Source: a bacterium (GTDB lineage Bacteria; DUMJ01). From it: 64,000 nt of DNA. Positions 2,718-43,592 of this stretch are shown here, one piece after another; position 1 is the first letter of the stretch, and each line of letters opens with the position of its first letter. Both the position numbers and the translations under genes were made by a program. The stretch is from positions 8,754 to 72,753 of the forward strand of contig JBMFMV010000003.1 of assembly GCA_049970495.1 (NCBI GenBank). The letters are read 5' to 3'. The notes beneath the pieces are model-generated. The model did not search any database and was not told the origin of the DNA. It saw nothing but the letters and a program-made list of their open reading frames with translations.

Positions 2718-2757
2718 GTTTGCCTCTCTTATACATTCGTAAAGTCCCGGAGTTCAA

Positions 2758-8585: not shown

Positions 8586-8938
8586 TGCTCCCCAGGGAGA
8601 AAAGATTATCCAAGTCAAAAGATATAAGAAATATATTGAGGTGTGGTAAAAGGTTAATAATGGATGGTATAAGTTTATATGTAGTTAGAGGAAGGGGTAG
8701 GATAGGATTTATTACTACTAAAGGTTTTGAAAATGCAGTTTTACGTAATAGGGCTAAAAGAAGAGTAAGGGGGGCGTTTGAAGCAGAGCATTTTTCTATA
8801 GATAATTATGATCTACTCTTTGTTATAAGGCCTGAAGTATTGGAAGCTGATTTTGAAAAAATAAAGGAGATGATTAAGAGGCTTACTCTAAATATAAGAG
8901 ATGAAGAAGATAGCTTTAGTTCTAATAAGATTTTATAA
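8585..8938 (+). CDS. rnpA: Ribonuclease P protein component
   Basis: RNR motif [13 protein letters not shown]. 117 aa. ATG overlaps the rpmH stop (TAATG). Confidence 0.85.
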
Positions 8939-17834: not shown

Positions 17835-17981
17835 TTGTTGTCAAGTCCCTCCTATGGTATACGTATTTCATGTAAGTATTTGAATTATAATATCATATTG
17901 AGGTCCACCATGGAATAAAGTGCTACTATCTTACGTCTACTTTTTTGAGAAAAGTAATAAAAGAGAAGGAGGTGATTTAGT

Positions 17982-18482
17982 ATGAAAAGGGTTTTAGCCT
18001 TAGTCTTGAGCCTAGCTTTACTATTAGGGACAGTACAGGTTGCCTTTACTAAGCCTCTACCCTCTAGAAGGATACCTATTATAGCAGGTCCATTTAGGTG
18101 TGATATTGTGGAGATTTCACCATGGGGGCAGAATTTAATAAAGTATTTAAACCTTACCGATGAGCAGATAAATAAGATCAAAGAGTTGAGAGATAGGTAC
18201 TATGGGAAGCTAAAAGACCTATGGAATAAACTACAGGACGCGGTATTTTCACTTAGGCAACTACAATTCCAAAGGCAACCTGATAAGACTCAGATAGAGG
18301 AGAAGAGGAAAGAGATAAGTAATATTAGAAAAGAGATTAATAATACACTTAAAGATTACTGGAATGAGTTTAAAGGGATACTTACCAAGGAGCAATTGTC
18401 TAAGCTAACAGAAAGAAAATTTACACCTCCATTTAGAATTAAAAGGACTCCTTGGAGATGTAGTCCTTTTTTTAGATGGTAA
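17982..18482 (+). CDS. Periplasmic Spy/CpxP-family protein (LTXXQ motif)
   Basis: Signal peptide MKRVLALVLSLALLLGTVQVAFT. Two LTXXQ motifs (LTDEQ, LTKEQ). Confidence 0.6.
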   Translation: MKRVLALVLSLALLLGTVQVAFTKPLPSRRIPIIAGPFRCDIVEISPWGQNLIKYLNLTDEQINKIKELRDRYYGKLKDLWNKLQDAVFSLRQLQFQRQPDKTQIEEKRKEISNIRKEINNTLKDYWNEFKGILTKEQLSKLTERKFTPPFRIKRTPWRCSPFFRW

Positions 18483-18489
18483 AAAGGAC

Positions 18490-18519
18490 TTAGGGTCTTA
18501 GGGGATAACCTAAGACCCT
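18490..18519 (-). terminator. Strong hairpin terminator between the convergent CpxP-like gene and hypF (T-run on the minus-strand side)
   Basis: tagggtcttagg / cctaagacccta forms a 12-bp stem with loop ggataa. Minus-strand read continues into TCCTTTTTAC. Confidence 0.6.
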
Positions 18520-28417: not shown

Positions 28418-28496
28418 ATCCTCTTACCCTCCTTTTGGTTTTTTATAGCAAAACATAGTTAAATATCCTACAAATATTGTACCACTAATTTTAAAA

Positions 28497-29882
28497 TTAG
28501 TAAAGATATCTCCAGGTTCTGCCGTCTTTTTTTATAAAGTCTTCTGCCTCTTTTGGACCAAAAGAACCTACCGAATAGATAGGAATTTGAGGATTATCCT
28601 TCCAGAATTCAATTATTGGTTGTACTATTTCCCACGCCTTTTCTATTTCATCTTCTCTTATAAATAGGGTCTGATCACCTCTAATGAGGTCTATAAAGAG
28701 TGTCTCATAAGCCTCTATATTCTGACTACTCCACTCCATAGAGGTAGGTATTGGACAGGATAGGATACTACTTCCTAGGGGCCTAAGCTGAAAACTCAGT
28801 ATAATTTTATTTTCTGGGGCAATTTTAAAGCCTATTATATCTTCTTGGGGTGTACAATCTAATAACTTTGAGAACAAGCCGGGTATTTTCTTAAATACAA
28901 TAATTGCTGATGTCTCTTTTTTCTTCAATTTCTTACCTGTCCTCAAATAAAAAGGCACACCATCCCATCTGAGATTCTCTATATAAAATTTTATTCCAGC
29001 GTATGTCTCTGTATAGGACTTAGAAAGTCCTTCATCTGCTAGGTATCCTTCATACTGTCCTCTTACTGTGTATAAGGGTACCTCTTCATATCTTATTTCC
29101 TTTATACTCTTTAAGACTTTTACTTTTTCATCTCTTATGGCGTTTTCGTTTATACAGCATGGCGGTTCCATAGCTATTAATGTGAGTATCTGGATTAGAT
29201 GGTTTTGTACCATATCTCTTAGAGCTCCAACTTTATCGTAGTATCCTAATCTTCCTTCTACGCCTACATCTTCTAATGCTGATATCTGTATATGATCTAT
29301 GAAGTTTCTATTCCAAATCCCTTCAAAGATTATATTAGAAAATCTTAGTCCAAAGATATTTTGTACCGTCTCTTTACCTAAAAAATGGTCTATTCTATAA
29401 ATCTCCTCTTCCTTAAAAAATTCTTTAATGATTCTATTAAGTCTCTTAGCAGATTCTAGATCATAGCCAAATGGCTTTTCAATGACTATTTTCCTTTTGT
29501 TAGAAAACTCTTTTAAAAGATGCCCTAGGTTTATAATTATTGATTCAAAAGTAAATGGTGGAGTAGCTAAATAGAAGATTAATTCTTCATCTTTAAATCT
29601 TGATAGAATCTCCTTTAGATTTTTATACTCCTCTATTTTGTCTAAGTCGATTCTTACAAATTCAAAGAGGGAGAAAAATCTAGGATCATCTGATTTTATA
29701 GAGGTCCTTAGCATTTGAATAAACTCTTCTTTCCCAACGTTAGGTCTTCTTCCCGTACCTATTATTTTTGAGCAGTTTATTAAATGATGTCCTCTATACA
29801 GGTTGTAAAGAACAGGGTACAATTTAGACCTTGCCAAATCTCCTAGTCCTCCAAATATTATTATTACAAATCTTCTTTCCAT
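28497..29882 (-). CDS. zwf: Glucose-6-phosphate 1-dehydrogenase
   Basis: RIDHFLGKE active-site motif, EKPFG, N-terminal FGGLGDLA NADP motif. Confidence 0.85.
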   Translation of the reverse strand: MERRFVIIIFGGLGDLARSKLYPVLYNLYRGHHLINCSKIIGTGRRPNVGKEEFIQMLRTSIKSDDPRFFSLFEFVRIDLDKIEEYKNLKEILSRFKDEELIFYLATPPFTFESIIINLGHLLKEFSNKRKIVIEKPFGYDLESAKRLNRIIKEFFKEEEIYRIDHFLGKETVQNIFGLRFSNIIFEGIWNRNFIDHIQISALEDVGVEGRLGYYDKVGALRDMVQNHLIQILTLIAMEPPCCINENAIRDEKVKVLKSIKEIRYEEVPLYTVRGQYEGYLADEGLSKSYTETYAGIKFYIENLRWDGVPFYLRTGKKLKKKETSAIIVFKKIPGLFSKLLDCTPQEDIIGFKIAPENKIILSFQLRPLGSSILSCPIPTSMEWSSQNIEAYETLFIDLIRGDQTLFIREDEIEKAWEIVQPIIEFWKDNPQIPIYSVGSFGPKEAEDFIKKDGRTWRYLY

Positions 29883-30043
29883 AAGGTTATCTACCTCTTT
29901 CTTAACATATTTTTGTAGATAAATTATATCACTTTAATGAGATTTCTTCTAAATGCTATTAAACTGAGGTTAGATTGATAACCTCTTTGATGCGCTATAT
30001 ACTAGTAAGCAAAAGTTTAAATTGATTGAATAGGAGGTTATAT

Positions 30044-30619
30044 ATGAAATTAAAGGGCAAAAGGGTAGTAATTCTAGTTTCTAATGAATTTGAAGATATA
30101 GAAGTCTTTTATCCATTTCTTAGACTTAGCGAAGAAGGGGCATGGATAACTTTTGGTATATATCAGAGAGGATTTCATCCAAGGCCTGCGTTCCCTGGTA
30201 AGCCAATAACAGGAAGATTTGGACTTACTGTTCCTCCTATGTTTCATAGAGAAGGATATAGATATGATGTAAAAGAGGCTACCGAGTTGTCCCCTGATGA
30301 TTATGATGCAGTAATAATTCCGGGTGGATTTTCTCCAGACTATCTAAGGAGAGAGCCAAAGATTACCGAGTTTGTTAGTAAGATGTACGAACAGGGTAAA
30401 GTTGTAGCTGCTATATGTCATGGCCCCTGGCTTATAATCTCTGCCAAAATAGCTAAAGGAAAGAGAATAGCAGGTGTTACACCTATAAAAGATGATATAG
30501 AAAACGCAGGGGCCATCTTTGTTGATGAGCCAGTAGCAGTTGACGGAAATATAATAACAAGTAGAGTACCTGATGACCTACCTGAATTCTGTCAGGCTAT
30601 AATTAACGCTATGTCATAA
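30044..30619 (+). CDS. DJ-1/PfpI family protease/deglycase
   Basis: Nucleophile elbow AAICHGP. ATG at 30044 preceded by AGGAGG; the ORF-track TTG start at 30026 is not used. Confidence 0.8.
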   Translation: MKLKGKRVVILVSNEFEDIEVFYPFLRLSEEGAWITFGIYQRGFHPRPAFPGKPITGRFGLTVPPMFHREGYRYDVKEATELSPDDYDAVIIPGGFSPDYLRREPKITEFVSKMYEQGKVVAAICHGPWLIISAKIAKGKRIAGVTPIKDDIENAGAIFVDEPVAVDGNIITSRVPDDLPEFCQAIINAMS

Positions 30620-31621
30620 CTCCAACTTTACCACCTGGGTTAGGTTTAATGGCATGTCTGGATCTAGCCCCTTTTTTATAGCTCTATAATAACCTAGATA
30701 TTGAGCAAATGGCATATAAAGGACTAACCTTAGAAATTCGTTTAGCTCTGAATCTATATTGATTCCATTACTGGTCTTATCTCCTATTATAACGTACTGT
30801 CCACCAATTTCTCTGATCTCTTCTATCACCCTTAGTTCCTCCTCTTTTGCTGAATCTGATAAGAGTAGTATTACAATAGAGTCTTTTGTTAAGCTTGCCT
30901 TTGGCCCATGTCTAAACTCTAAAGTGTGATAGGCGTTAGTAAGGGAACTTGACATCTCTCTTACCTTTAGTGCAGATTCACAAGCAATACCGTAGAGAGG
31001 TCCTGAGCCTAAGAATATAATTTCTTTATATTCTTCCCTTGAGATTTTTTCTGCCCATTCTCTAGCAAGAGATAATACTCTTTGAGAAGATGTGGGGAGC
31101 TTTTCTTTAATAATGTTTATGTCTGACGAGTTAATCCCATTGAGTACTCCTAATTGAACTCCAAGTAACATAGAAGTAAAAGATTTTGTCATTACAACAC
31201 TATTCTCTTTTGCCGATTCTAAGATTATCGCCCTCTCACTTTTATAAGTTAACTGACTTTTAGCCTTAGTGGTTATAGAAATAAAATTTCCTTTTCCTAA
31301 AGACCTCACCTTTTCCATAGCCATCATTACCTCACTAGTCTCCCCTGATCTAGAAATACCAAGGTATAATGTAGGTCTTTTAGATATTACAGTATTCGAG
31401 AAAAAGATAAATTCTTGAGACGGAACACCTCGAGATGGGATACCTGTATAGTGTTGGGTAAAACTGGCTAGACTAAGGGCAAGATAATACGATGTCCCAC
31501 TTCCAAAGTAAATAATCTCTTCTTTGTTTCTAATTTCTTCTATACAGGGTGGATTATCTAATATCTCTTTCCAGACCTTTGGTTGGTCTTCTATTTCTTG
31601 TCTAGTATACTCTCCATACAT
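30614..31621 (-). CDS. Double-SIS-domain sugar-phosphate isomerase/deaminase (GlmS C-terminal-like; AgaS/FrlB/GlmD family)
   Basis: Two SIS modules (GSGTSY..., GSGPLYG...). ATG at 31621 with AAAGGAGG RBS; the ORF-track TTG start at 31630 is not used. Confidence 0.65.
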   Translation of the reverse strand: MYGEYTRQEIEDQPKVWKEILDNPPCIEEIRNKEEIIYFGSGTSYYLALSLASFTQHYTGIPSRGVPSQEFIFFSNTVISKRPTLYLGISRSGETSEVMMAMEKVRSLGKGNFISITTKAKSQLTYKSERAIILESAKENSVVMTKSFTSMLLGVQLGVLNGINSSDINIIKEKLPTSSQRVLSLAREWAEKISREEYKEIIFLGSGPLYGIACESALKVREMSSSLTNAYHTLEFRHGPKASLTKDSIVILLLSDSAKEEELRVIEEIREIGGQYVIIGDKTSNGINIDSELNEFLRLVLYMPFAQYLGYYRAIKKGLDPDMPLNLTQVVKLEL

Positions 31622-31730
31622 CCTAGTCAATCCTCCTTTTTATGGCTTAACGCCTTAATTAATAAAGCTTTACTTTGTATCTAAGTCAAATAGACTATCT
31701 CTTTTACTAAGAGATTATCACCTATAATTG

Positions 31731-33146
31731 TCAAAGAATTATATGGGCTGGTTTTAAGGTCCACGTTTGTAACTTGGCTAGCTCTATAATATTTGGAGCA
31801 CTAAAGTCCTCCGGAAGGATAATCCAATCCCATACCCCCTCTTCTTTGACTTGACTTTCAAGAAGTAAATTCCCTTTTATTATCTTGATATTTTCAGGTA
31901 GTGAAGTGTTGATAGGTAACTGAGAGATTAATACATTGGCCGTAGCAAAAAAGTCTATTGGGCTTACAATTTTGTCCTGAATAGTTATGGCTTCTGGAAT
32001 TCGGCCATTCTTATTAATAAATTCCAAAATCCATCTACAAGCGAAAGCAAGGTCTTCTTTATTAAAAAATATAACTTCGCTATCAATCCTTTTTATGGGT
32101 CCATAGATTGTATCAGGTAACTTAAATTTAGACTCTACTATACATAGATTGTTATCTATTAAGTTTACTAATAACGATAGGGCTAAATAGAAGATTTCAG
32201 CAGGTGATAATGTTATTCTATCAAATCCGTAATAGGTAATTTTAGAATTAATCTCTTTAGCTAGGTGAATAATTTCAGAAGTAGAAAATAACTCTTCTTT
32301 AGCTTTATTAAAGTATATACTGTAAGCCTCTCTAGCTGTTAGTATTTGAACGTCTGAATGTGAAGCTATATAGTTTAAATATTCAGAGAAGTATCCGAGC
32401 TCTTTTTTCATCCTCTCATAGGATTTTAATTTAGGGATAGTCCAACTGGAGCGATCTGTATTCTTACCCCTACTAAAATTGACACTATCCCAGAATTCAT
32501 AGGTGGCAAATTCACATGGATGATACCATATACTAATCACTCCACCGTCCTCATTTATAAGACGTCTAAAGATATTTTCGAAGTTTTCAATACCTACTTT
32601 GATTCCTTCATAACCTAGTTTTAGGTCAAGTCTTGTAGTATTCTCTCGAAGCCTAAGGATATTGAGTATCCCACAGTACCAGAAGGGCTTTTCATTAAGT
32701 CCTATATGCTCAGCTTCATCAAGATAGACTTGAATTCCCCAGTTTTTAAGAACAGGGTATACATGTGGTGCCCAAGAGGAACCCGGTTGTCCATAACAAG
32801 AAGGTATAACATCAAATGTGTCTATTATTTCCTCATACCCAATCCTTTCTCTAAGTTCAAATTCTTTTATCCCTTCTTCCCACCCAAGGTCTTTTAGATA
32901 TTCAGCTACTGTTGGATGAACACTGTGTAGATTAGTATGATATCCGATATCGTGCTTTTTTAATCTATCAATTATGTCATATCTTCCTCGCTCTTTTAAG
33001 GCTCTAACTTTCTCCCCTACTAATTTAAAGGTTCCTTTTATCTTATACGAATCTAGGACATCTATTATACCCTTGAGAGCGTCATCGCTTTGTGGAGTAA
33101 TAAAATCTTCCACGTCAAACCAAAGTAAGACATATACTTTAGACAT
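31731..33146 (-). CDS. Hypothetical protein with distant polysaccharide-deacetylase (CE4/NodB-like) N-terminal features
   Basis: WFDVEDF and HTNLHSVHP loosely resemble CE4 motifs 1 and 2. 471 aa. Weak assignment. Confidence 0.3.
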   Translation of the reverse strand: MSKVYVLLWFDVEDFITPQSDDALKGIIDVLDSYKIKGTFKLVGEKVRALKERGRYDIIDRLKKHDIGYHTNLHSVHPTVAEYLKDLGWEEGIKEFELRERIGYEEIIDTFDVIPSCYGQPGSSWAPHVYPVLKNWGIQVYLDEAEHIGLNEKPFWYCGILNILRLRENTTRLDLKLGYEGIKVGIENFENIFRRLINEDGGVISIWYHPCEFATYEFWDSVNFSRGKNTDRSSWTIPKLKSYERMKKELGYFSEYLNYIASHSDVQILTAREAYSIYFNKAKEELFSTSEIIHLAKEINSKITYYGFDRITLSPAEIFYLALSLLVNLIDNNLCIVESKFKLPDTIYGPIKRIDSEVIFFNKEDLAFACRWILEFINKNGRIPEAITIQDKIVSPIDFFATANVLISQLPINTSLPENIKIIKGNLLLESQVKEEGVWDWIILPEDFSAPNIIELAKLQTWTLKPAHIIL

Positions 33147-33261
33147 AGACGCTCCTCCTTACTTTTGAGTGTTATCTTTAAGAGAATTTTAACATTTCTA
33201 GGATATGATAAAATATAAACCTGAAGGCTTATGCTAGATTATAAAGAAAGGAGATCTATTA

Positions 33262-34713
33262 ATGGTGGAGGAATATACCTTTACTTTTGATTTCACTGAG
33301 AAAGACACTAAACAGCATTTCCCAATTACATTTGAGGTAAAAGAGGGAATAAAAGAGATGTTAATTATTGGAAGTTATCAACCTAAAGCAGCTGACAAGG
33401 AACTTTCTAAAGAACTTGCTAAGTCTGCCTTAAGACTTTATTTAAATCAGGGTGATATGCCTTTAGATGTAGATGCCTTGTCTGAAGATATTTTAGAAAA
33501 AGTAATGGCAGACTTTATTCCGGTGAGTAACCTTATAAACTTTAGAATCTTTGACTCACTAGGAAATTTTAGAGGAACAGGTGATAATAGGGTATCTGAC
33601 GGAATTCCTATAAAAATAGGTAATAACATTAGTTCTTTTGGTTGTGTCTCTGGAGAAATCTATCCAGGTACTTGGAGACTTATAGTTGAAACCCACGCAG
33701 TAATTAATAAATGCCGTTTGAATCTAAAGATTAGACTTAATGATAGAGAGGAGACTTATGATATACCAGAATTGGCTGGTCCTTATAGGCCTATATGGAA
33801 TAGAGAGCTACCTAAGAATGGTTGGGTTAAGGGAGATTTTCACTCCCATTCCAGGCATAGCGATGGGAGTATGACTATTGAAGAACTAGTTCAAAACGCT
33901 ATTGATAGGGGGCTTGATTTTATCTTTCTTACTGATCATAATAAGATTTCTGGATGGGAGACAGCTAAAGATGAAAAGTTTCCTCTTTTCCCTGGAATAG
34001 AGTTTACTACTTTTTGGGGACACTTTACAGCCTTTGGAATAACTAGATATATAGAATGGGATAGTATAAATCTTAATAGGGGAATAAATGAAGTTGCTGA
34101 GTTAGTTCATTCTCAAGGGGGTCTATTCTGTGTTGCTCATCCGTTTACAATAGGGGACCCTGTCTGTACCGGATGCAGATGCATCCTCGATGTAGATTGG
34201 AATTGTGTAGATGCTCTGGAGGTATGGGCTGGGACTTTTAGGCAGAGAAGACACGAGAATACCGAAACCTTAAAATTATGGCGAACTTTGTTGAACCAAG
34301 GTTATAGGGTAGTAGGAATAGGTTCTACAGATATCCATTCAACAAAGGATATTTATCCAGATATATCCATGACGTATGTCTTAGTAGAAGAGTTAACCCT
34401 TTCTAATCTATTGGACTCATTAAAGAAGGGGAGAGTCTATGTAACTAAAGGACCAAAAGTTAGCTTCGACATTGGAAATGCTATTATAGGGGATAGTATC
34501 AATACTTCTAAATCATCGGTAAATCTTAAGTATTCTATAACTATGGAATCTGATCTCAAGATTATTTATAACGGCAGAGAGACTAGCGCCATAAGAAATA
34601 CGAGCGCTGGAGAAGTAGAATTTATTCCAGAATACCCTGGTTATGTGTATCTAGAATTTTGGAAGGGAGGGGAATTAGTCGCTTTTACCAATCCAATATT
34701 TATAGAAGATTAA
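33262..34713 (+). CDS. PHP-domain metal-dependent phosphoesterase (CehA/McbA family) with ~170-aa N-terminal extra domain
   Basis: GDFHSHSRHSDGSMTIEELV...FLTDHNKISG...ALEVWAG PHP histidine/aspartate motifs. Confidence 0.7.
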   Translation: MVEEYTFTFDFTEKDTKQHFPITFEVKEGIKEMLIIGSYQPKAADKELSKELAKSALRLYLNQGDMPLDVDALSEDILEKVMADFIPVSNLINFRIFDSLGNFRGTGDNRVSDGIPIKIGNNISSFGCVSGEIYPGTWRLIVETHAVINKCRLNLKIRLNDREETYDIPELAGPYRPIWNRELPKNGWVKGDFHSHSRHSDGSMTIEELVQNAIDRGLDFIFLTDHNKISGWETAKDEKFPLFPGIEFTTFWGHFTAFGITRYIEWDSINLNRGINEVAELVHSQGGLFCVAHPFTIGDPVCTGCRCILDVDWNCVDALEVWAGTFRQRRHENTETLKLWRTLLNQGYRVVGIGSTDIHSTKDIYPDISMTYVLVEELTLSNLLDSLKKGRVYVTKGPKVSFDIGNAIIGDSINTSKSSVNLKYSITMESDLKIIYNGRETSAIRNTSAGEVEFIPEYPGYVYLEFWKGGELVAFTNPIFIED

Positions 34714-35989
34714 TCCCTCTGCCTATAGTAATGTTCCCGTAGGGAACTACATATAGAGTAGATTTTTCTTTCAAGGAGAGCATTTCTATTGCCTCTTCTA
34801 AATTATCTGCTTTCTTAAATCCTAAAAGTTTTACATCCTCTTCAGATAGATCAGTTATTATAACTACTTTTCGTTTCTTCAGTCCGACTCTAATGTCATA
34901 AGCTATCTTTCCTATCATATTAAAATCTTTTCTTAATTCTTTTTCTAACTCTATGGGTGACTCAATACCTAACCACTCTCTAAGATTCTCTGCCCCTAGC
35001 CCTTCGCTACAGGAAGCAACTAATATTATTCCTCCGTCTTCTTTTACCATCTGCATAGTATTTATTATAGATTTCATTGCTTGATAGAAATTGATATCAA
35101 ATGGGTATCCTCCAGCACTTACCAAGACCACATCAGCTTTCTGTTTTATTTCTACTGAGAATATCTTCTCGATTATCTTACACCCTGCTCGATGAGCCTG
35201 TTTCCAGTTAGTCCCTGAGACTATTCCAGAGAGTTTTCCTTCTGCGTTGAATATTGTATTTACAATGAAATCTATCCCTGCTAGTTCAGCTATCTCTTCC
35301 ATATCTTCATGAACAGGATTTCTATCTAAAATTCCAGCGGAAGCCATTGGATTATATCCTTTACCAAAGGATGGCTCTAGTAACATAAGATGATTATGAC
35401 TTATAGTAGGAAAGCCTGAGATGCCAGGTAAAATGGATTTTGCCCCTCCACTAAAACCTGCAAAGTCATGGTAGTTTATTGTTCCTGTTATTATCTTCAA
35501 TTCAGCTTCTAGATAATCTCTATTCAAATATATAGGGGTACCTCTAGAAGAGACACCCCTATATTCTAGAGAAGACATATCCCTGCAGTTATGATTTATT
35601 ATTCTGAGTTTATTTGTAACTTCTTCCCCTAATAGAGACCTGATTTCTTCTTGATTAAGCATGGGATGAGCACCTACTGCGATAATTATTTCAATGTTAT
35701 CTAATGGCATTCCCACTTTAGTAAGTTCTTCTAAGAGGATAGGCACAATTTCTTTTGCTAGAGTCCTTCTTGTCTTATCGCTAACTAGGATCACCGCAGA
35801 ATTTTTACCTTTAGCTACCTCTAAAAGAGATAATCCATACTTTGGTTTTCTGATAGTTTCGTAAATAGCTTCTTCCTGCTCCACTAATTCAGGATACCTT
35901 TTAGGCTTTAGGAAACCTAAAAGGTTTAACCCTCCTATATCGAACTCCTTTTCTTCTTTATTGTAAGGTAGTTTTACTATTTCTTCCAT
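34700..35989 (-). CDS. LarA-like (nickel-pincer-dependent 2-hydroxyacid racemase/epimerase family; DUF2088)
   Basis: 429 aa. ...VVLVSAGGYPFDINFYQAMKSI... matches the LarA core. Convergent 14-nt overlap with the PHP gene. Confidence 0.55.
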   Translation of the reverse strand: MEEIVKLPYNKEEKEFDIGGLNLLGFLKPKRYPELVEQEEAIYETIRKPKYGLSLLEVAKGKNSAVILVSDKTRRTLAKEIVPILLEELTKVGMPLDNIEIIIAVGAHPMLNQEEIRSLLGEEVTNKLRIINHNCRDMSSLEYRGVSSRGTPIYLNRDYLEAELKIITGTINYHDFAGFSGGAKSILPGISGFPTISHNHLMLLEPSFGKGYNPMASAGILDRNPVHEDMEEIAELAGIDFIVNTIFNAEGKLSGIVSGTNWKQAHRAGCKIIEKIFSVEIKQKADVVLVSAGGYPFDINFYQAMKSIINTMQMVKEDGGIILVASCSEGLGAENLREWLGIESPIELEKELRKDFNMIGKIAYDIRVGLKKRKVVIITDLSEEDVKLLGFKKADNLEEAIEMLSLKEKSTLYVVPYGNITIGRGINLL

Positions 35990-36927
35990 AATTCAGGTAG
36001 AGGATATTCATCTAATAGTTTCTTCATTTTAACTTTTATCTCCTCGTCAGCAGGACTTAGTGGTAGTCTTGGTATTCCACCAGGAAGTCCTACCAGATTC
36101 ATTCCTGCCTTCAGTTTTATAATATAGTCTGCCAGGCTATCTCCAACTTCTAGTATATAGTCTAAGAGTGGTCCGGCCTGTTTTAGTATCATCTTCGCCC
36201 TATCATAATCTTTCTTTTCTTCAGCCTCGTATATACTTAGACAGGTCTTTGGTATTAGACATGCCTCCCCAGTGACAAATCCACGAGCTCCCATCAGACT
36301 AGCATAAGGTTCATGTGGTTCTCCTGCTCCATTGACTATAGAAATTTTATCACCCAATACTTCTATCATCTTGGCTAGTTTACTTATATAAGGAGAGTTA
36401 TCTTTTAATGCTACGATATTAGGGACCTCTCCAACAAGTCTTGCCATTGTTTCTATGGGTATATCTAATTGTGAAGCAAACCAGTTATTATAGACCATAA
36501 TGCCTAGTTTTGTCTCTTTAGCTATGGCCTTGTAGTGGTTTAAAAGTATCTTCTCCGAAGGTTTCCAATAGTAAGGCGGACTTATCATAACACCATCAAG
36601 TCCTGCCTCTTCTGCATAGTGGACTAGCTTTATAACAGTTCTTGTATCTGTATGATTACATCCACCAATAACAGGAACCACATCACCAGCTTCTTCTTTT
36701 ACAATCTTGAATATCCTTCTCCTTTCCTCATCTGTAAGCATTGGACATTCTCCGGTACTACCAGCAGGAACTAAGACCCCATTTCCTTCTTTTATACCGC
36801 TATCTATGAGGAATCTAGTGAGTCTTCTTAGTCCACCCTCATCTAACTCATAATCTTCTTTAAATGGAGTTACCATAACTACAACTATACCTTTAACTTT
36901 ATCCTTTAGATCCTTAAATTCTAACAT
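35977..36927 (-). CDS. DapA/N-acetylneuraminate-lyase family Schiff-base aldolase/synthase
   Basis: VTPF...GSTGE motif. Candidate Schiff-base lysine in VALKDNS. ATG at 36927 chosen over the GTG at 36939. Overlaps the LarA-like start by 13 nt. Confidence 0.75.
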   Translation of the reverse strand: MLEFKDLKDKVKGIVVVMVTPFKEDYELDEGGLRRLTRFLIDSGIKEGNGVLVPAGSTGECPMLTDEERRRIFKIVKEEAGDVVPVIGGCNHTDTRTVIKLVHYAEEAGLDGVMISPPYYWKPSEKILLNHYKAIAKETKLGIMVYNNWFASQLDIPIETMARLVGEVPNIVALKDNSPYISKLAKMIEVLGDKISIVNGAGEPHEPYASLMGARGFVTGEACLIPKTCLSIYEAEEKKDYDRAKMILKQAGPLLDYILEVGDSLADYIIKLKAGMNLVGLPGGIPRLPLSPADEEIKVKMKKLLDEYPLPELWKK

Positions 36928-37129
36928 TTTAATCGACACCTCCTGAAAGCTTAATGTCTGATCTAGGTTGAAATTTTATCAAGTTTATACTTAATTGTCA
37001 AAGGTTTCCCTGCTAATAAGTCTAACTTTTCTTTGAAGATGTAAGATTATAATATATTAAACTCTTGTATATTAATCGATTTGTAGTAAAATATATGCAA
37101 GATTGTCAGGGTTTGGAAGGAGGGTAATT

Positions 37130-38449
37130 ATGGAAGAATATGTACCTTATGAATTAAAAGGCAAAAAGATCCTAGAGATTATTCATATTGGTTCTAAGTT
37201 TAGTAAAGAGGAGTCTATAGAACTCAAATTTTATATAAAGACCAATAAAGATTTAGTAAAAGTAGCAAAAGATATAGCTAGAGACGAAACTACTGGTCCT
37301 TGGGTTGGGCAAGGGGAACCAACAGAGCTCTTTATCCGTTCTCAGGCAGATGTGGATAGAATAGAGAGGTATGGGGAGAATGAGGGTGTAATCTATGTAA
37401 GAACACCTCTTTCTAATATCTCCCAGGAAGCAGATCCTTTATATCAGTTTATTATGCTTGCAGTCGGAGGACCTGTATTGGAATTTGTTTATTATCAACA
37501 AGTAGCGTTTTTAGACTTTACCTTCCCAGAAAGTTTTTTGATGAGATTTTCAGGTCCGAAGTTTGGAATAAATGGTGTTAGAAAACTCTTAAATCTCAAA
37601 GATGGAGAACCTATTGTCGGAACAATAATGAAACCTTGTGCGGGATTAACCCCTAAAGAAGTGGCAGAGAGGTGTTATCAAGCTGCCCTTGGGGGTGTGA
37701 TGTTTATAAAGGATGATGAAAAGATGTTGGGACCTAGCTATTGCCCCTTAGAAGAAAAGGTAAAACTTGTATCTCAGGCTTTGAAAAGGGCAGAAGAGGA
37801 GACAGGGAGAAGGTGTCTCTATGCCCCTCATATAGTTGCTAGAGCAGACAAGATTAAGGATATCGCTAAGAGGGCTATAGAGTGGGGAGCTACTGCCTTG
37901 ATGTTTAATGCAGTACTAGGTCATACATATGAGGCTCTTAGTATCTTAGCTGAAGATAACGAGATAAACGTTCCTCTTTATGCCCACTCTGGTGGTAGAT
38001 CTGGTTTGTCAACAGGTCCAAGGAGGATAGATGATACTGTAATAGCAAAGTTGTTAAGATATAGTGGAGCAGATTTCTTCCAACATGGAGTTTTTGGTAT
38101 GAAAGAGATGCATGTTGCTTCATTGGATGATGGATTACTTCATAATCTGATTAAGGTCTTAAGAGAAGACACTCCAGGTATTAAGGATACAATCCCTGTA
38201 GCTGCCGGTGGCCTTGGAGTAACAAATGTTGGGATAAATCTTAAAGAGCATAGGGATGAAAAATTTGGCTATGGTGTTGCTCTATTAGCAGGTTCTAACG
38301 TATTAAAACATCCTGATGGTCCTAAAGCGGGGGCTATAGCTATGCATCAGGCAATTCAAGCCTATTATGATGAAGGAATAGTAGATAAGGACAGACTAAA
38401 TGAATATGCTATAAGAAGAGGGTATAAAGAATTATTGAAAATACTATAA
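37130..38449 (+). CDS. RuBisCO-like protein (form IV RLP of the RuBisCO large-subunit superfamily)
   Basis: GTIMKPCAGL (K175 kept, K177 to C) and FIKDDE (K201, D203, E204 kept) align to RbcL TIKPKLGL / FTKDDE. PVAAGGLG and AHSGG align to the SGGIH and HIHR regions. ATG preceded by GGAGG. Confidence 0.75.
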   Translation: MEEYVPYELKGKKILEIIHIGSKFSKEESIELKFYIKTNKDLVKVAKDIARDETTGPWVGQGEPTELFIRSQADVDRIERYGENEGVIYVRTPLSNISQEADPLYQFIMLAVGGPVLEFVYYQQVAFLDFTFPESFLMRFSGPKFGINGVRKLLNLKDGEPIVGTIMKPCAGLTPKEVAERCYQAALGGVMFIKDDEKMLGPSYCPLEEKVKLVSQALKRAEEETGRRCLYAPHIVARADKIKDIAKRAIEWGATALMFNAVLGHTYEALSILAEDNEINVPLYAHSGGRSGLSTGPRRIDDTVIAKLLRYSGADFFQHGVFGMKEMHVASLDDGLLHNLIKVLREDTPGIKDTIPVAAGGLGVTNVGINLKEHRDEKFGYGVALLAGSNVLKHPDGPKAGAIAMHQAIQAYYDEGIVDKDRLNEYAIRRGYKELLKIL

Positions 38450-38463
38450 AATGGGAGGGGATT

Positions 38464-41400
38464 ATGAGAAAAATCCATCTTGTTCCACATTTTCACTGTG
38501 ACCCTGTCTGGATAGCAGATCAGAATATGTACCAAGAGGGAGGGGAAAATCTCCCTAGGATGACTCGCCATCCCTTTGGATTTTTGGACTTAGTAAGATC
38601 CTATCTGGATTGTTGTAGAAAAGATGAAGAATATACCATTTTTCTCTCCGAATTAGACTATCTAAAACCATATTGGGATATGTATCCAGAGGATAGAAAA
38701 TTTATAAGATACCTTATATCTAGAAGAAGGCTAGATTTAGGAGGTTCTTATAATGAGCCTAATGAAAATAGTATAGGAGAAGAGGCGCTAGTTAGAAATG
38801 TCCTCTATGGAATGACATTTCATAAACTGCAATTAGGTGCGGACCCAAAGGTTTATCTTCCTTTAGATGTATTTGGACATACAATTCAGCTTTCTCAGAT
38901 TCTAAAGAAGAGTGGATTTCAGGGATGTATTTGGTCCAAGCATGTAGTAGGATTTCCTCCAGTGTTTTATCATATGTCTCTAGATGGAAGTGTTCTCCTA
39001 CATAGAAGAGTAGACTATGGTGGACACTTCCAGAATATAGATATATTGAAGGAAGACTTATCTCTGAGATTTGAAGAAACAGAAAGTATGAGAATAGATG
39101 TAGATTTAAGGTTTATAGGTGGTGATTCAGACCCCCCTACTGAATGGCTTACAGGGAGGAGTAAAGAACTACGAGAGGGGAGAATTCCTATTTTCCTTTC
39201 TGTTCCTAGTAGGTATATAGAGGAACTTCAGAATAGAATAAAGGGGAAAAGGTTTAGTATTCCATACAGTTCTAGAGATATGGCGTTTTACCATATAGGA
39301 ACCTCTCTATCTAGGGTAGAATTGAAGATAGCGAACAGGCTAGGGGAGATTAAACTCTTAAAGGCAGAAAGATTTGCTACTATATCTTATCTACTTGGAG
39401 CCAAATATCCTCATAAGGCTTTAGATAAAGCGTGGAGACAATTACTATTTAATCAGCATCATGATGCTATAACAGGAACTTCAGGAGATAAACCTTACGT
39501 TGATCTTATGATAGGATACAGGGAATCTCTAAGATTATCCAGTTCTATACTTAATAGTTCACTTAAGTTTCTCTCTTCACTAATAGATACTGAGGGACAG
39601 GGGGTTCCTATTGTTGTGTTTAATAGTCTAAATTGGACTCGCTCTGACCTGTGTAAGATCAAGCTTCCTGTCGGATCTTACAAGATAGTAGATAGTACAG
39701 GGAAGATTTACTCATCTCTCAGTGTAGAAAAAGGGAATAATGTTGAAGTCTTTTTCATAGGAGAAGACATTCCACCACTAGGATATAAGGTATTCTTTGC
39801 TATTCCAACCAAGAATAAGAAAGAATTAATAAGGGATAGAGGAACAGTTATAGAGAATGATTTCTATCGTATAGAAGTAGACCCTACCAAAGGTGGAAGG
39901 ATTAAGAGTCTTGTTTATATGGGTAGAGAATTTGTAAAAGAAGAGAGAGGAATGAATGAACTTATTTTACTCAAAGAAGATCCAAATAGAAGGGAACCTT
40001 CTTGGGAAGTATTTACTACAGGTGAAAAGTTAAGTTCAAGCGAATTTCCAGCAGATGTGGAAAGAGAAAGGAATGAACTATATGAAAGACTCATTATATC
40101 AGGAAGAATAGGAGATTTCTGTAAATTTAGACAGATAATAACCCTTTATAAAGGTATAGAAAGAATAGAGTTTGTTACTGATATTATTGATTATAAGAAG
40201 AAGACCTCAGAAGATGATATGTTTGTCGTTGTATTCCCTACCACTTTAGAAAATACCCTTCCTACTTTTGAAGATAGATTTGGAGCATTAACAAGGAGAA
40301 AGAGTAGGGGATATCTAGACTTTAGAACTTGGCAGTGGAGGAATTATTCTAGTTGTGGTATATATCCAGCTTATAGATGGGTAGATTTAGGTCCCTCAGT
40401 GACTATAAGGATAGGGTCAAGTAGTTTGCCAATCGGCCTTACAGATATAATAATACCGCACAATAAAGATTTGGAATCTAATATCCCTATTCTGTTGAAG
40501 TCTTTAGCTAATAAGGGGATAACAGCCTCTATTATGTATGATGATAACGATATGGATAGACGAAGTAAGCTTTTGAGTGAGGATAGCACTTTACCACTGT
40601 TTGAGGAGGACATATTTGCAACATTTAGAGTTTCTATAGGGCTTCCTAATAACAGTTACATAGAAAGAATAATTTCTAGACTGCCGAAGGAAGTCGTAGA
40701 GAGATTCCAGAAGGCTATAGAAGAGAAGGGTTATGGGTTACTTCTAGTAGAAGAAGATGTACCGGTACTTGTAATTTCTGCTAAGAATATATCCAGTCTT
40801 ATAGATATTTTTACTAGGATAGAAAAGGATTTAGCCGATAGAATAATTGACCTTTCTGAAGATGAAGGGTATATATCTTACAAAGAAGTTCCTTCTTTTG
40901 GATTGACTCTAATAAACAAAGGTAATATAAGTAACAGTGTAGAGAATGATAATACTATTGTAATGCTCTTACAACATACCGCAAGATGGTCTGGTAAGCA
41001 CTTTGACTTTGACTTTGTTCCTGAAGAAGGGACCCATAGGTTTATATATGCCCTTTATCCTCATAAGGGCACTTGGATAGAGGCAAAGTCTTATAAAAAG
41101 GCGATAGAGTTCAATTTTGAACTAGATAGTATAGTCACAGATTCTCATAGCGGCTATTTCCCAAAGAATCATAGCTTTATAAATTTTGGAAATAGCGATA
41201 TTATACTTACTGCTTTAAAGTTAGAAGGAGTTCCTTTAGCAGGGCCGATTATGGATGCTGGTGATAGTGATAATATCATAATAAGGGTATATGAACCTTG
41301 TGGTAGAGAAACCTGCTTTGATATTTACTCTAGTTTTCCTATTTTAGAGGCGCAAAGGACAGACCTTATGGAGAATGAAATTACTCCTATTAGTAGTTTT

Positions 41401-42096
41401 TACCTTACGCCATTTTCTATTGAAACTTATAAGCTTTCATTAAAAAGAAACCCTTTAAGATATGTAGATTATGATATTCAGACAGAACCATATCAACCGG
41501 TATATGTAAGATATTGGAGACATAATGCTGGAGCTTCTCCCGTTGGAAATCTCCCAATAGTGGTGTCTTTAAGAAAAGAAGGAGATAAAATAACTCTTTA
41601 TGTGGCAAATGATTTTGTTGATAAAAAAGTTTTAGGTAAGGTTTGCCTTAGATCTGTAGGGATCGAATTAGATAAAAGAGAGATAGAGTTTGACCTTTTT
41701 CCATCTGCTTATGCTAGATATGAAGTTGCTCAATGCAAAGAGGAGAAACCTAGTATTGTAGAAGCTTTATGGGAGTGTGATGGGCAGAGTTATAAAGATG
41801 TACTTATTTTAGGAGAGTTGAAAGCTCTAGATGTATCTTTTAAAGATGGAAAGATAGATATATACAATCCAAATTGGTTCGAAGTGGAGGGAGAAGTTAT
41901 TATAGGGGCTCCTATAGAATTGTGGGGTAAAGAACTTACTGGAGATTTTTCTTTCGACGCTATTCCTGAAAGATTTAGCTTTTACTGTAAACCTAATGGC
42001 AATTACAGTTTAGAAATTAGTGTTGAAAGACCCAATAATTGGAGTATGGTAAAACTAGCCTATATGGGTAAAACCCTTTATCTAAGACCAAAGTAA
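38464..42096 (+). CDS. Glycoside hydrolase family 38 alpha-mannosidase-type enzyme, unusually large (1210 aa)
   Basis: N-terminal VPHFHCDPVW, LDVFGHT and FNQHHDAITGTS GH38 signatures. Starts 14 nt after the RLP stop with GGGAGGGG RBS. Confidence 0.8.
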   Translation: MRKIHLVPHFHCDPVWIADQNMYQEGGENLPRMTRHPFGFLDLVRSYLDCCRKDEEYTIFLSELDYLKPYWDMYPEDRKFIRYLISRRRLDLGGSYNEPNENSIGEEALVRNVLYGMTFHKLQLGADPKVYLPLDVFGHTIQLSQILKKSGFQGCIWSKHVVGFPPVFYHMSLDGSVLLHRRVDYGGHFQNIDILKEDLSLRFEETESMRIDVDLRFIGGDSDPPTEWLTGRSKELREGRIPIFLSVPSRYIEELQNRIKGKRFSIPYSSRDMAFYHIGTSLSRVELKIANRLGEIKLLKAERFATISYLLGAKYPHKALDKAWRQLLFNQHHDAITGTSGDKPYVDLMIGYRESLRLSSSILNSSLKFLSSLIDTEGQGVPIVVFNSLNWTRSDLCKIKLPVGSYKIVDSTGKIYSSLSVEKGNNVEVFFIGEDIPPLGYKVFFAIPTKNKKELIRDRGTVIENDFYRIEVDPTKGGRIKSLVYMGREFVKEERGMNELILLKEDPNRREPSWEVFTTGEKLSSSEFPADVERERNELYERLIISGRIGDFCKFRQIITLYKGIERIEFVTDIIDYKKKTSEDDMFVVVFPTTLENTLPTFEDRFGALTRRKSRGYLDFRTWQWRNYSSCGIYPAYRWVDLGPSVTIRIGSSSLPIGLTDIIIPHNKDLESNIPILLKSLANKGITASIMYDDNDMDRRSKLLSEDSTLPLFEEDIFATFRVSIGLPNNSYIERIISRLPKEVVERFQKAIEEKGYGLLLVEEDVPVLVISAKNISSLIDIFTRIEKDLADRIIDLSEDEGYISYKEVPSFGLTLINKGNISNSVENDNTIVMLLQHTARWSGKHFDFDFVPEEGTHRFIYALYPHKGTWIEAKSYKKAIEFNFELDSIVTDSHSGYFPKNHSFINFGNSDIILTALKLEGVPLAGPIMDAGDSDNIIIRVYEPCGRETCFDIYSSFPILEAQRTDLMENEITPISSFYLTPFSIETYKLSLKRNPLRYVDYDIQTEPYQPVYVRYWRHNAGASPVGNLPIVVSLRKEGDKITLYVANDFVDKKVLGKVCLRSVGIELDKREIEFDLFPSAYARYEVAQCKEEKPSIVEALWECDGQSYKDVLILGELKALDVSFKDGKIDIYNPNWFEVEGEVIIGAPIELWGKELTGDFSFDAIPERFSFYCKPNGNYSLEISVERPNNWSMVKLAYMGKTLYLRPK

Positions 42097-43592
42097 TTGA
42101 GGATAATTGCACCTATGTAGACAATTAATCCCATAATTACTAAGTATATGAGAGAGTAAGGGAATATTATTCTCATCAATTTCCCTTCCTCTCCTTTTTT
42201 ATTTATCCCCGAGACTGCTAGAGTAAGGTTTTGTAAAGATATAAGTTTCCCTCCTGTGGCTCCGCTAGCATTGGCACTAGCTAGCCATACCTGAGGGACC
42301 CCTATACTTTTACCTGCTTCCGTCTGTAAAGTCCCAAAAAGGACATTCGAGGCAGTATCACTTCCCCCCAAGAATGTTCCTATGGCTCCTAGAAATGGTG
42401 ATATAAATGGGTAGAAACTGCCAAATATCTGTATGAGTTTAATGGCAAGAAACTTAGTCATACCCGCATAACTCATAATATTAGCCATAGCCATCATAGA
42501 AGTAATAATTGAAATAGTAGGTAGGATCTGTATTAATGTCCCTAAAAGTGCCTTCTTATAGTCAATTAGTCTAGCATTTAATATTAGTCCTCCAATAATT
42601 GTCGAGATTAATATGAGTGTCCCGGGTGTATAAAGGGGATCTATCTTTATACTCTTATTTATCGGTTCAAGTCTCAGTGTAAGTGAGAGAGGATAAGATG
42701 TTAGTATTTCACTCATACCCTTGCTAAACCTTGTTATAAGTATAAGTAAAACAATCAATATATATGGAACCCATGACCTTAAATCTTCCTTAGAGACCTT
42801 TTCTTTGATATTTCTCTTCTCTACTAATCTTAAATAGAGTATTAGAAAACCTATAGTAAAGAATGAGGCTAGGATTGCAGGTAATTCTGGCCCTATATAC
42901 CAGCCAACAAGACTCTGTGTTATAGCGAAAGAAAATCCAGTTCCTAAGAGAAGGAATATACTAGCAGATTCCTTAAGTTCCCTCTTTATAAAAAATGGAA
43001 TAAGTAGCGTTACGGGAAAGAGCTGTAGGCCTATTGTTCCACTAAGAGCTTTTATTGGTAGGTTAGTAACTCTTGCCAAAGCTATTACTGGTACCCCTAT
43101 AGCAGCATAGACAACGGGGATAGTATTTGATAGTAGAGAGACTATAGCTGACTGATATAGTGGAAATCCTAATGATAATAGGATAGCAGAAGGAACTATT
43201 ACGGAAGTACCAAACCCTGCTATACCTTCAAGAAGGGCTCCAAAACAGAAAGCTATTATAAGAGCTTGTATTATCTTCTTATCAGATATGCCAGATAAAC
43301 TCCTTTTGATTCCATCTATAGCTTCTGTCTCACAGATCAATCTATAGGTAAAAAGAGCTCCAAAAATAGTCCAAATAATAGGGTATAGAGAAGAGACGAT
43401 CCCATCTATAATACTCCAGTAGATTATATTAATAGTAACATCCCAGAAAAATATTGCTCCTAAAATTGTTACAAGAAGAGATATGATACAGGCTAAATAA
43501 GGCTTTGTGACTCTAAATATAAGTGCGTAACAGAGCCACAGAAGAGGAATTACAGCTGATAATAGCATTAGTAGCTCTCTGTATCTTTCCAT
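42078..43592 (-). CDS. lctP: LctP-family permease (L-lactate/glycolate/hydroxy-acid)
   Basis: ALIIAFCFGALLEGIAGFGTSVIVPSAILLSLGF and FLGAIGTFLGGSDTASNVLFGTLQ closely match E. coli LldP blocks. 504 aa. Confidence 0.8.
   Translation of the reverse strand: MERYRELLMLLSAVIPLLWLCYALIFRVTKPYLACIISLLVTILGAIFFWDVTINIIYWSIIDGIVSSLYPIIWTIFGALFTYRLICETEAIDGIKRSLSGISDKKIIQALIIAFCFGALLEGIAGFGTSVIVPSAILLSLGFPLYQSAIVSLLSNTIPVVYAAIGVPVIALARVTNLPIKALSGTIGLQLFPVTLLIPFFIKRELKESASIFLLLGTGFSFAITQSLVGWYIGPELPAILASFFTIGFLILYLRLVEKRNIKEKVSKEDLRSWVPYILIVLLILITRFSKGMSEILTSYPLSLTLRLEPINKSIKIDPLYTPGTLILISTIIGGLILNARLIDYKKALLGTLIQILPTISIITSMMAMANIMSYAGMTKFLAIKLIQIFGSFYPFISPFLGAIGTFLGGSDTASNVLFGTLQTEAGKSIGVPQVWLASANASGATGGKLISLQNLTLAVSGINKKGEEGKLMRIIFPYSLIYLVIMGLIVYIGAIILNYFGLR

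Follow-up and report, generated by a model that had tools for sequence, protein, structure and literature searches.

The RLP Locus

The subject of this report is a gene for a RuBisCO-like protein (RLP), together with its surroundings, in a 64,000-nucleotide stretch of bacterial DNA (the window, at its full length) from the GTDB lineage DUMJ01, which spans positions 8,754 to 72,753 of the forward strand of contig JBMFMV010000003.1 (GenBank assembly GCA_049970495.1). The RLP gene is followed after 14 nt by a gene for a GH38-family glycosidase and is transcribed divergently from a DapA-like and a LarA-like gene, with an LctP-family permease gene lying beyond GH38 (Table 1). Comparison with related loci points to a mosaic and not a pathway, in which a constrained, probably self-promoted RLP gene has gathered different neighbours in different lineages.

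The RLP start codon is preceded by a ribosome-binding site and, within a stretch of about 80 nt on its 5′ side, by a promoter-like element assigned at the level of consensus. This stretch aligns across eight loci, in which the upstream gene is variously a DapA-like gene, a PHP gene, a sulfatase gene or a divergent GH38 gene. Because of the 14-nt gap, which holds a separate ribosome-binding site for GH38, and of the promoter-like element upstream of the RLP, the two genes are very probably co-transcribed in the window. A generic promoter and terminator scan of the window returned counts equal to those of shuffled sequence, without enrichment, and an Rfam search of the whole window gave no match.

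The glycosidase carries the metal and nucleophile motifs of its family (HFHCD, LDVFGH with the nucleophile Asp, and QHHDAITGT), which places it within GH38, and about 220 of its residues extend past the last Pfam domain. Its closest solved relative is yeast Ams1 (E 4e-21), and it scores 110 bits against the model of the mannosylglycerate hydrolase MngB (NF007331, cut-off 1138) and thus falls outside that enzyme. Inspection of the N-terminus by eye revealed no obvious signal peptide, and the protein is predicted to be cytoplasmic.

Table 1. Genes and control features around the RLP gene, in window coordinates
Feature	Position	Strand	Remarks
RLP	37130–38449	+	439 residues; stop codon TAA at 38447–38449; matches Pfam RuBisCO_large
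Ribosome-binding site of RLP	37115–37124	+	GGAAGGAGGG, before the ATG at 37130
Promoter-like element	37065–37092	+	TTGTAT-16 nt-TAAAAT
GH38-family glycosidase	38464–42096	+	1210 residues; ATG at 38464; Glyco_hydro_38N, Alpha-mann_mid, Glyco_hydro_38C and Glyco_hydro38C2 all above cut-off
Ribosome-binding site of GH38	38453–38460	+	GGGAGGGG
DapA-like protein, DHDPS/NAL-family class I aldolase-like	35977–36939	-	likely start ATG at 36927, after AGGAGG; Pfam DHDPS 190.8 bits
LarA-like protein, nickel-pincer 2-hydroxyacid racemase/epimerase family	34700–35989	-	Pfam Lar_N 198 bits and LarA_C 66 bits
PHP-domain CehA/McbA-family metallohydrolase	33262–34713	+	NF038032 249 bits, cut-off 80
CE4-like protein	31731–33146	-	471 residues; Polysacc_deac_1 20.9 bits, below cut-off 23.1; divergent from PHP
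Double-SIS sugar-phosphate isomerase/deaminase-like protein	30614–31630	-	Pfam SIS twice; GlmD, GlmS C-terminal and AgaS models far below cut-off
LctP-family hydroxy-acid permease	42078–43592	-	TIGR00795 349.5 bits, cut-off 341.15, hence a family member

An earlier note on this DNA had listed all of these genes, and each recurs at the same position in the list of open reading frames (ORFs): the 1210-residue GH38 gene with its own ribosome-binding site 14 nt behind the RLP, the DapA-like gene that overlaps its LarA-like partner divergently from the RLP, and the PHP, CE4-like (sub-threshold), double-SIS and LctP genes around the pair. Its description of RLP and GH38 as an apparent operon agrees with the gap and the promoter-like element, from which co-transcription is likely; moreover, the pair is not a chance juxtaposition, since it recurs in related genomes (five of seven lineages).

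Family Membership of the RLP

The RLP belongs to the RuBisCO superfamily fold, with 122.7 bits against Pfam PF00016 (RuBisCO_large; cut-off 30.1), and no NCBIfam model for RuBisCO or RLPs reaches its cut-off on the window protein. The lowest E-value among the NCBIfam matches is that of the MtnW model PRK09549 (NF007095), at 178.5 bits for a cut-off of 409; a second MtnW model, TIGR03332, gives 143 bits for a cut-off of 513.6, which places the protein outside the MtnW equivalogs. Similarly, the form III RuBisCO model TIGR03326 reaches 168.8 bits (cut-off 497), the RuBisCO model PRK04208 156 bits (cut-off 438), and the OiaX model NF042437 131.6 bits (cut-off 700), the last setting the RLP apart from the OiaX equivalog as well.

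An AlphaFold model of the RLP has a predicted local distance difference test score (pLDDT) of 94.8 and, in Foldseek, retrieves RuBisCO structures (form III and form I) and RLP structures about alike, with template-modelling (TM) scores of 0.76–0.85 at 23–28% identity. Solved MtnW, form III RuBisCOs, and the RLPs of Chlorobium and Rhodopseudomonas likewise score alike, at about 100–130 bits from the single RLP sequence and about 113–160 bits from a family-profile query. The structures 1tel, which we take to belong to the Photo clade, 2qyg, presumably of the DeepYkrW type, and 3nwr, presumably a class of its own, reach only 99–148 bits. An exact-sequence lookup of the window RLP returned no record, and the Pfam context of its neighbourhood was taken from relatives. 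These scores support the assignment of the protein as a form-IV-type RLP, predicted to be neither a carboxylase nor MtnW, in accordance with the form-IV label that the earlier note had given it.

Active-Site Residues and Clade Placement

Residue mapping finds RuBisCO K175, K201, D203, E204 and H294 retained in the RLP. The equivalents K168 and K194-D-D196-E197 (for K175 and for the carbamate/metal triad K201, D203 and E204, respectively) are invariant or nearly so across the clade, and the equivalent of H294 is H286, inside the motif H286-S-G-G-R. The full set of residues with which forms I–III bind ribulose 1,5-bisphosphate (RuBP) and carboxylate it is absent from the window protein: N123 is replaced by P115, K177 by C170, R295 by S287, H298 by R290, H327 by Q318 and S379 by A359, while G403-G404 reads G388-S389 and the loop-6 Lys (K334) varies within the clade. 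The resulting signature is P115 / K168-P-C170 / K194-D-D-E-K / H286-S-G-G-R / F-Q318-H / A359-G-G. An Arg298-Arg299 pair is invariant in the clade, and the distal phosphate site is remodelled. In 2oek, 2zvi and 4nas the MtnW Lys opposite N123 belongs to an FGK motif, and the clade has an invariant GGP in its place. Cys170, at the K177 position, was considered as a clade-specific catalytic residue; the idea was given up, since K-P-C turns up commonly in numerous RLP branches outside the clade.

A rough neighbour-joining (NJ) tree was built from 127 representatives of the superfamily, its anchors being reconstructed from alignments to Protein Data Bank (PDB) structures. In it the window RLP joins a compact group whose signature is PKPC / KDDEK / HSGGR / FQ[HI] / AGG. 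This group is nested in a larger clade that shares KDDEK and H[SC]GG[RK] and stands apart from the MtnW and form III anchors. The window subfamily comprises two or three clusters at 50% in a library of 1.84 billion cluster representatives; its named homologues belong to metagenome-assembled genomes (MAGs), one group being Dictyoglomi, at 87%, and the other Poribacteria, Omnitrophica and Ratteibacteria, at 56–63%, and the clade is common to MAGs of Omnitrophota, Poribacteria, Planctomycetota, Ratteibacteria and Aerophobetes. Its active-site pattern suggests an uncharacterised clade, distinct and separate from the characterised MtnW and form III enzymes; no description of the clade, or of a link between an RLP and GH38, was found in the open-access literature.

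Synteny among Dictyoglomota-like Relatives

In all, 171 loci were fetched (labelled L003, L004 and so on), and their neighbourhoods were covered over 8–10 kb. Among them are seven Dictyoglomota-like lineages, the window included, dereplicated at 95% RLP identity. The window, L092 and L004 share the arrangement CE4-PHP-LarA-DapA / RLP-GH38 / LctP. In L003, whose contig begins at the RLP, RLP-GH38 / LctP is seen, and the strains with one shared RLP sequence (P0001) keep RLP-GH38 / LctP behind three different upstream regions. L005 has CE4-PHP-RLP / LctP only, while in L006 a PHP gene, a GH116 gene, a solute-binding protein gene and a GH38 paralogue of 38% identity, divergent from the RLP, precede RLP / LctP. 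The order RLP-GH38-LctP thus occurs in five of the seven lineages, with GH38 14–16 nt downstream of the RLP, and LctP is the constant downstream neighbour of RLP or RLP-GH38 in all seven. In six of seven, PHP is located upstream of the RLP at a distance of no more than 10 kb, the seventh (L003) being cut at the RLP start; the divergent CE4-like and PHP pair is syntenic in the loci that extend past PHP (L004, L005, L088 and L092). DapA-LarA is found directly upstream in three lineages and 4.8 kb off in one strain (L088, with three inserted genes), and is absent within 8–10 kb in others.

The RLP is the most constrained gene of the locus, with a ratio of nonsynonymous to synonymous substitution (dN/dS) of 0.02–0.05, compared with about 0.07–0.15 for GH38, LctP and PHP, at dS from 0.7 to more than 2. 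L005 clusters with the GH38-bearing L004 in the RLP, LctP and PHP trees, so that its missing GH38 and DapA-LarA are most simply explained as a loss; the RLP dN/dS on the L004–L005 pair is 0.053. As the stretch of about 80 nt 5′ of the RLP aligns in every context and the RLP is under the strongest constraint, the RLP is probably the resident, self-promoted gene of the locus.

The P0001 strains have identical RLP proteins and different sets of glycan genes over the 8–10 kb upstream. One upstream type (L086, L087, L089 and L093) carries GH106, GxGYxYP, NIF3, esterase and sulfatase genes; another (L094) has other genes, followed by NIF3, esterase and sulfatase; and the third (L088) has PHP-LarA-DapA, then a GH141-like gene, esterase and sulfatase, so that esterase and sulfatase adjoin the RLP in all three. 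The downstream side, with hrcA-grpE-dnaK, stays fixed in Dictyoglomota-like genomes. As judged from these gene orders, the region upstream of the RLP (8–10 kb in L086–L094; window 26468–37130) is an apparent recombination hot spot between housekeeping blocks, which takes up insertions of glycan genes.

Neighbourhoods in Other Phyla

From other phyla, 139 loci (1.64 Mb) were available, of which 60 (654 kb) carry window-subfamily RLPs at 48–63% identity; the window proteins were searched against all their ORFs with phmmer (E ≤ 1e-3). LctP found no match in the 139 loci. LarA found none in the 60 subfamily loci and one in the 139, lying 7 kb from a sister-subfamily RLP. The DHDPS family gave four matches in the 139 loci, none adjacent to the RLP, one of them in a subfamily locus (L099); PHP domains gave five, all more than 3.5 kb away, three of them in subfamily loci; and GH38 gave a single match, a partial ORF in the subfamily locus L121, where it is the third gene upstream of the RLP. 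Since the RLP keeps none of these neighbours in other phyla, its pairing with GH38 appears local to one small bacterial lineage.

Two candidate partners were rejected on these data, namely the PHP hydrolase (by analogy with MtnW and the MtnX phosphatase), whose other-phyla counterparts lie 6–9 kb from the RLP and are non-syntenic, and the DHDPS-family genes near distant RLPs (L099 and L132), which are not adjacent. In L099 (5743–7952), two tandem genes for CorA-family Mg2+ transporters stand directly upstream of the RLP and co-directional with it, preceded by EcoRV-type restriction endonuclease and DHDPS-family genes. In L121 (1–2606, with the RLP at 2593–3624), a tight co-directional run begins with the partial GH38 and continues through an AP_endonuc_2-like TIM barrel and a Gfo/Idh/MocA oxidoreductase to the RLP; the partial GH38 is 27% identical to residues 813–988 of the window GH38. 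L110 and L112 carry the RLP of L121 (99% nucleotide identity) with wholly unrelated upstream DNA. Many orthologues stand in unrelated contexts, for example with TilS upstream (Omnitrophota-like) or with the start of the mraZ-mraW division cluster and a cysteine desulfurase (Poribacteria-like).

The neighbours that do recur are sugar kinases and ketose-bisphosphate-aldolase-type genes: in 10 of the 45 orthologue loci left after dereplication, a PfkB, PFK, class II aldolase, GatZ-like or FGGY gene is found no more than three genes from the RLP. Genes of these types number 15 among the 209 near genes, compared with 5 among the 244 farther ones (Fisher p = 0.010). Besides the orders aldolase-RLP-PfkB, RLP-PfkB-URO-D-like and URO-D-like-GatZ-like-RLP, one cluster, seen in L084 (6496–12207) and also in L085, L118 and L021, places gltX, the RLP and a PFK-family kinase next to a divergent class II ketose-bisphosphate aldolase and a PfkB hexose kinase, with spacers of 8–30 nt; the kinase and aldolase of these clusters score below the curated cut-offs of their families.

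The sister subfamilies, with K-P-T or K-P-G, are far more regularly clustered with PfkB, FGGY, DeoC/LacD aldolase, mannitol dehydrogenase, RPE and ABC sugar transporter genes. The K-P-T RLPs of Pelolinea and other Anaerolineae (36–39% identical) share one cluster in L046–L048, L051, L065, L071, L158, L160, L164 and L165, in the order PfkB, FGGY, DeoC/LacD aldolase and RLP, with AP_endonuc_2 and sugar ABC transporter genes on the opposite strand; this cluster looks like an undescribed sugar catabolic operon.

Flanking Genes in the Window

The DapA-like gene overlaps the LarA-like gene by 13 nt, and the pair appears translationally coupled, with DapA-like first. Against the dapA model TIGR00674 the DapA-like protein scores 172 bits for a cut-off of 206; it retains the Schiff-base Lys (IVALKDN), the GSTGE motif and the Tyr, and has Ala at the position of DHDPS Arg138, the residue that binds aspartate semialdehyde. 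On these grounds it is predicted not to be a true DapA and to represent a DHDPS/NAL-family member of another specificity.

The LarA-like protein retains the equivalents of H108, H174, K184 and H200 in the motifs GAH, NYH, SGGAK and SHNH (alignment to the malate racemase Mar2, its closest solved relative at 2e-68), which places it in the LarA superfamily. Its best NCBIfam model is LarAH10, at 394 bits for a cut-off of 540, and the other specificity-group models, those for malate racemase and lactate racemase among them, are likewise missed (376 bits against a cut-off of 500, 340 against 462 and 320 against 460). The genes larB, larC and larE do not appear in the 25 families that head the listing for the rest of the window's genes. 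Downstream of LctP, the P0001 strain L087 has a GntR-LarA-aldehyde dehydrogenase-transaldolase/FSA cluster (16779–20722), which contains another LarA-family gene; LarA homologues thus occupy several different contexts in these genomes.

The 3′ end of the PHP gene overlaps that of the LarA-like gene by 14 nt; some 190 residues at the N-terminus of the PHP protein are without a family match, and its PDB matches span only the first PHP motif. The CE4-like protein has no NCBIfam or PDB match, and the Armatimonadota MAG L049 encodes a 38%-identical homologue at a distance of 9 kb from a sister-subfamily RLP. In L004, L005 and L092, the position of the double-SIS gene is taken by a DeoR regulator and a sugar-binding protein. 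LctP is convergent with GH38 and overlaps it by 19 nt, and it scores far below cut-off against the specific lactate and glycolate permease equivalogs. At the upstream edge of the island (24122–25780 and 28497–30619) lie a NuoG-like Fe-S/molybdopterin oxidoreductase subunit, glucose-6-phosphate dehydrogenase and DJ-1/PfpI, the latter two not seen at the matching position in L004, L005 or L092. The rest of the window is housekeeping, with aromatic amino-acid genes, FTHFS, hrcA-grpE-dnaK-dnaJ and mnmE/G.

Interpretation and Rival Explanations

The locus is best read as a mosaic, a reading to which we assign a probability of roughly 0.6: it would consist of a constrained, self-promoted RLP gene and lineage-local additions, and its RLP would isomerise or epimerise a phospho-keto sugar. 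GH38 would have been appended 14–16 nt behind the RLP in one Dictyoglomota-like group and be read through from the RLP promoter, while an independent DapA-like/LarA-like cassette and assorted glycan-degrading genes would have been inserted upstream in some lineages. With its RuBP residues lost, the RLP presumably cannot carboxylate RuBP; it may instead abstract a proton adjacent to a carbonyl with the aid of Mg2+ and the carbamate, a type of reaction that the characterised RLPs share (PMC6302742). The isomerised or epimerised product, from a phosphorylated keto sugar or possibly a keto sugar acid, would then feed a kinase/aldolase route.

The earlier note had gone further and raised a linkage of RLP, GH38, DapA-like and LarA-like, to be checked for conservation. 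As a conserved functional unit this set is not supported, since the cassette is separable, L005 lacks three of the genes, and no partner is adjacent in the 60 subfamily loci of other phyla; what survives of the linkage in close relatives is RLP-GH38-LctP. PHP, CE4-like and LctP, which it had also drawn into the context, accompany the RLP only inside the Dictyoglomota-like lineage. As to its suggestion that the RLP enolises a phosphorylated keto acid or sugar, this may well be the most reasonable chemistry, while a pathway with the neighbouring genes finds no support in synteny.

Several observations weigh against the mosaic reading. None of the kinase or aldolase genes lies near the RLP in the Dictyoglomota-like loci, and the sugar-phosphate proposal is for that reason borrowed from 22% of the distant orthologues and from the sister subfamilies; partners encoded beyond the 8–10 kb covered would not show. 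The tree applies an NJ method to deep divergences and lacks anchors for named RLP clades such as IV-AMC, IV-GOS and the A. fulgidus type. At the same time, the RLP-GH38 junction survives dS above 1 in five lineages while the upstream DNA is reshuffled, another GH38 paralogue stands right beside the RLP in L006, and the partial GH38 of L121 precedes an orthologous RLP in an unrelated lineage, so that a genuine functional tie to mannoside use is conceivable.

The persistence of the junction and the two further arrangements with GH38 near the RLP keep alive the alternative that RLP and GH38 form a dedicated two-enzyme unit, in which the cytoplasmic GH38 would free mannose, a mannosyl-linked hydroxy acid or a phospho-sugar, the RLP would enolise the phosphorylated product, and LctP, always adjacent in the Dictyoglomota-like lineage, would handle the acid product. 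The short gap beneath one promoter-like element fits such a unit, which we nonetheless consider doubtful: in L005 the RLP is constrained without any GH38 gene in the locus, a single GH38 match in the 654 kb of orthologue loci is near chance by a rough, uncalculated estimate, the RLP of L121 recurs in L110 and L112 next to unrelated DNA, the locus holds no kinase, and we know of no mannose catabolism that requires an RLP-type step. It is improbable, to a distinctly greater degree, that the RLP serves a 2-hydroxy/2-keto sugar-acid route with the DapA-like, LarA-like, LctP and PHP proteins and acts on a phosphorylated keto acid, in analogy to the D-apionate RLPs. These four families all handle hydroxy or keto acids, the Arg298-Arg299 pair and remodelled distal phosphate site could bind a carboxylate, and a LarAH10 enzyme has been reported to epimerise gluconate and mannonate (PMC11770544), a lead only, as the window protein lies below the LarAH10 cut-off. 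Yet DapA-LarA is gone from L005, is not found within 8–10 kb in several P0001 strains, and stands three genes away in L088; the 60 orthologue loci lack LarA and LctP and offer one DHDPS-family gene, separated from the RLP by the two CorA genes; and the OiaX score is far short of its cut-off.

The two assignments to characterised enzymes fare worse still. An identity of the RLP with MtnW, the methionine-salvage enolase of the YkrW clade, is suggested by the best NCBIfam E-value, that of PRK09549, and by MtnW structures among the top PDB matches, but both MtnW models are missed by wide margins and form III RuBisCO scores equally well; the FGK Lys position is GGP, HPAxSGA becomes HSGGR and KDDEI becomes KDDEK, the MtnW anchors sit on a separate branch, and the families listed for the window (the top 25 only in one listing) showed no mtn genes, which makes this assignment very improbable. 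The earlier note had named a position inside the MtnW/YkrW clade as grounds for refutation; tree and models place the RLP outside it. Least credible of all is the view that the RLP works as a genuine, form III-like RuBisCO in nucleotide salvage or CO2 fixation: archaeal form III enzymes are among the top fold and sequence matches and K175, K201, D203, E204 and H294 are kept, but N123, K177, R295, H298, H327 and S379 have given way to Pro, Cys, Ser, Arg, Gln and Ala, the loop-6 Lys is variable, TIGR03326 is missed, and the families listed for the window showed neither phosphoribulokinase nor AMP-phosphorylase-type genes.

Beyond the mosaic reading itself, a tentative and rather speculative proposal is that the RLP clade and its K-P-T/K-P-G sisters, which are widespread in uncultivated Omnitrophota, Poribacteria, Planctomycetota and Anaerolineae, might perform one or more activities as yet undescribed in the superfamily. 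One candidate is the Mg2+/carbamate-dependent epimerisation or isomerisation of substrates that resemble ketose 1-phosphates, whether a sugar or a 5-keto acid sugar, the product of which would pass to kinases (PFK/PfkB) and to aldolases of class II or of the DeoC/LacD type. A bicistronic operon with a cytoplasmic GH38 would then have taken up the enzyme in Dictyoglomota-like thermophiles and tied the breakdown of mannosides to that step. Known RLP reactions are few, comprising the methionine-salvage enolase and isomerases and the D-apionate enzymes. Once its reaction is defined, this clade would extend by a branch what is known of function in the RuBisCO superfamily and could help to annotate a sugar-metabolism step in many uncultivated bacteria. 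It is found in several poorly studied phyla, and its association with ketose kinases and aldolases is significant though weak. The RLP-GH38 operon offers thermostable candidate proteins and mannoside growth as a context, and the comparative data caution against deriving a pathway from a single locus.

Comparison with Known Systems

Among the flanking proteins, the GH38 resembles Ams1, the GH38 enzymes of Streptococcus and Enterococcus, and E. coli MngB in domain architecture, in the HxHxD, QHHD and DxFGH motifs and in its predicted cytoplasmic location, but it is very divergent from all of these and is no MngB orthologue. The LarA-like protein shares with Mar2 and LarAH10 the catalytic His pair, the cofactor-tethering Lys and the Ni-binding His, and falls below every equivalog cut-off; similarly, the DapA-like protein shares with the DHDPS/NAL aldolases the Schiff-base Lys, the Tyr and GxTGE, without the DHDPS Arg138, and lies below the equivalog cut-offs.

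For the RLP, MtnW/YkrW (B. subtilis 2zvi and G. kaustophilus 2oek) offers the RuBisCO large-subunit fold, the KDDE triad, the K175 equivalent and about 28% identity, and its non-carboxylating enolisation of a 1-phospho keto compound may resemble the chemistry of the window protein. Unlike MtnW, the window RLP has no Lys at the N123 position, where Lys98 of the G. kaustophilus enzyme is said to have been found catalytic by Imker in 2007; it reads HSGGR for HPAxSGA and AGG for SAG, and it occupies a separate branch. The form III RuBisCOs (P. horikoshii 2cwx/2d69 and H. butylicus 6hun) are the best fold and sequence matches, with TM 0.82–0.89, 26–27% identity and the same domain layout, but at least six of their RuBP-binding or carboxylation residues are replaced, and the model score is one third of the cut-off. 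The D-apionate RLPs associate with a DUF1537-type acid-sugar kinase; no such kinase is among the annotated neighbours of the window or orthologue RLPs, in which it was not searched by name. According to passages of PMC6302742 that cite Carter 2018, these enzymes (the 3-oxo-isoapionate-4-phosphate decarboxylase OiaX and a transcarboxylase/hydrolase) act in carbohydrate catabolism on an oxo sugar-acid phosphate, a 3-oxo acid-sugar phosphate supplied by a kinase. A further comparison is with the uncharacterised K-P-T/K-P-G sisters of Anaerolineae, Armatimonadota and others, which share KDDEK, Y-C, H-[SC]-G-G-[RK] and 36–46% identity with the window RLP within one superclade; the sisters sit in conserved sugar clusters, whereas the gene of the window subfamily is mostly an orphan.

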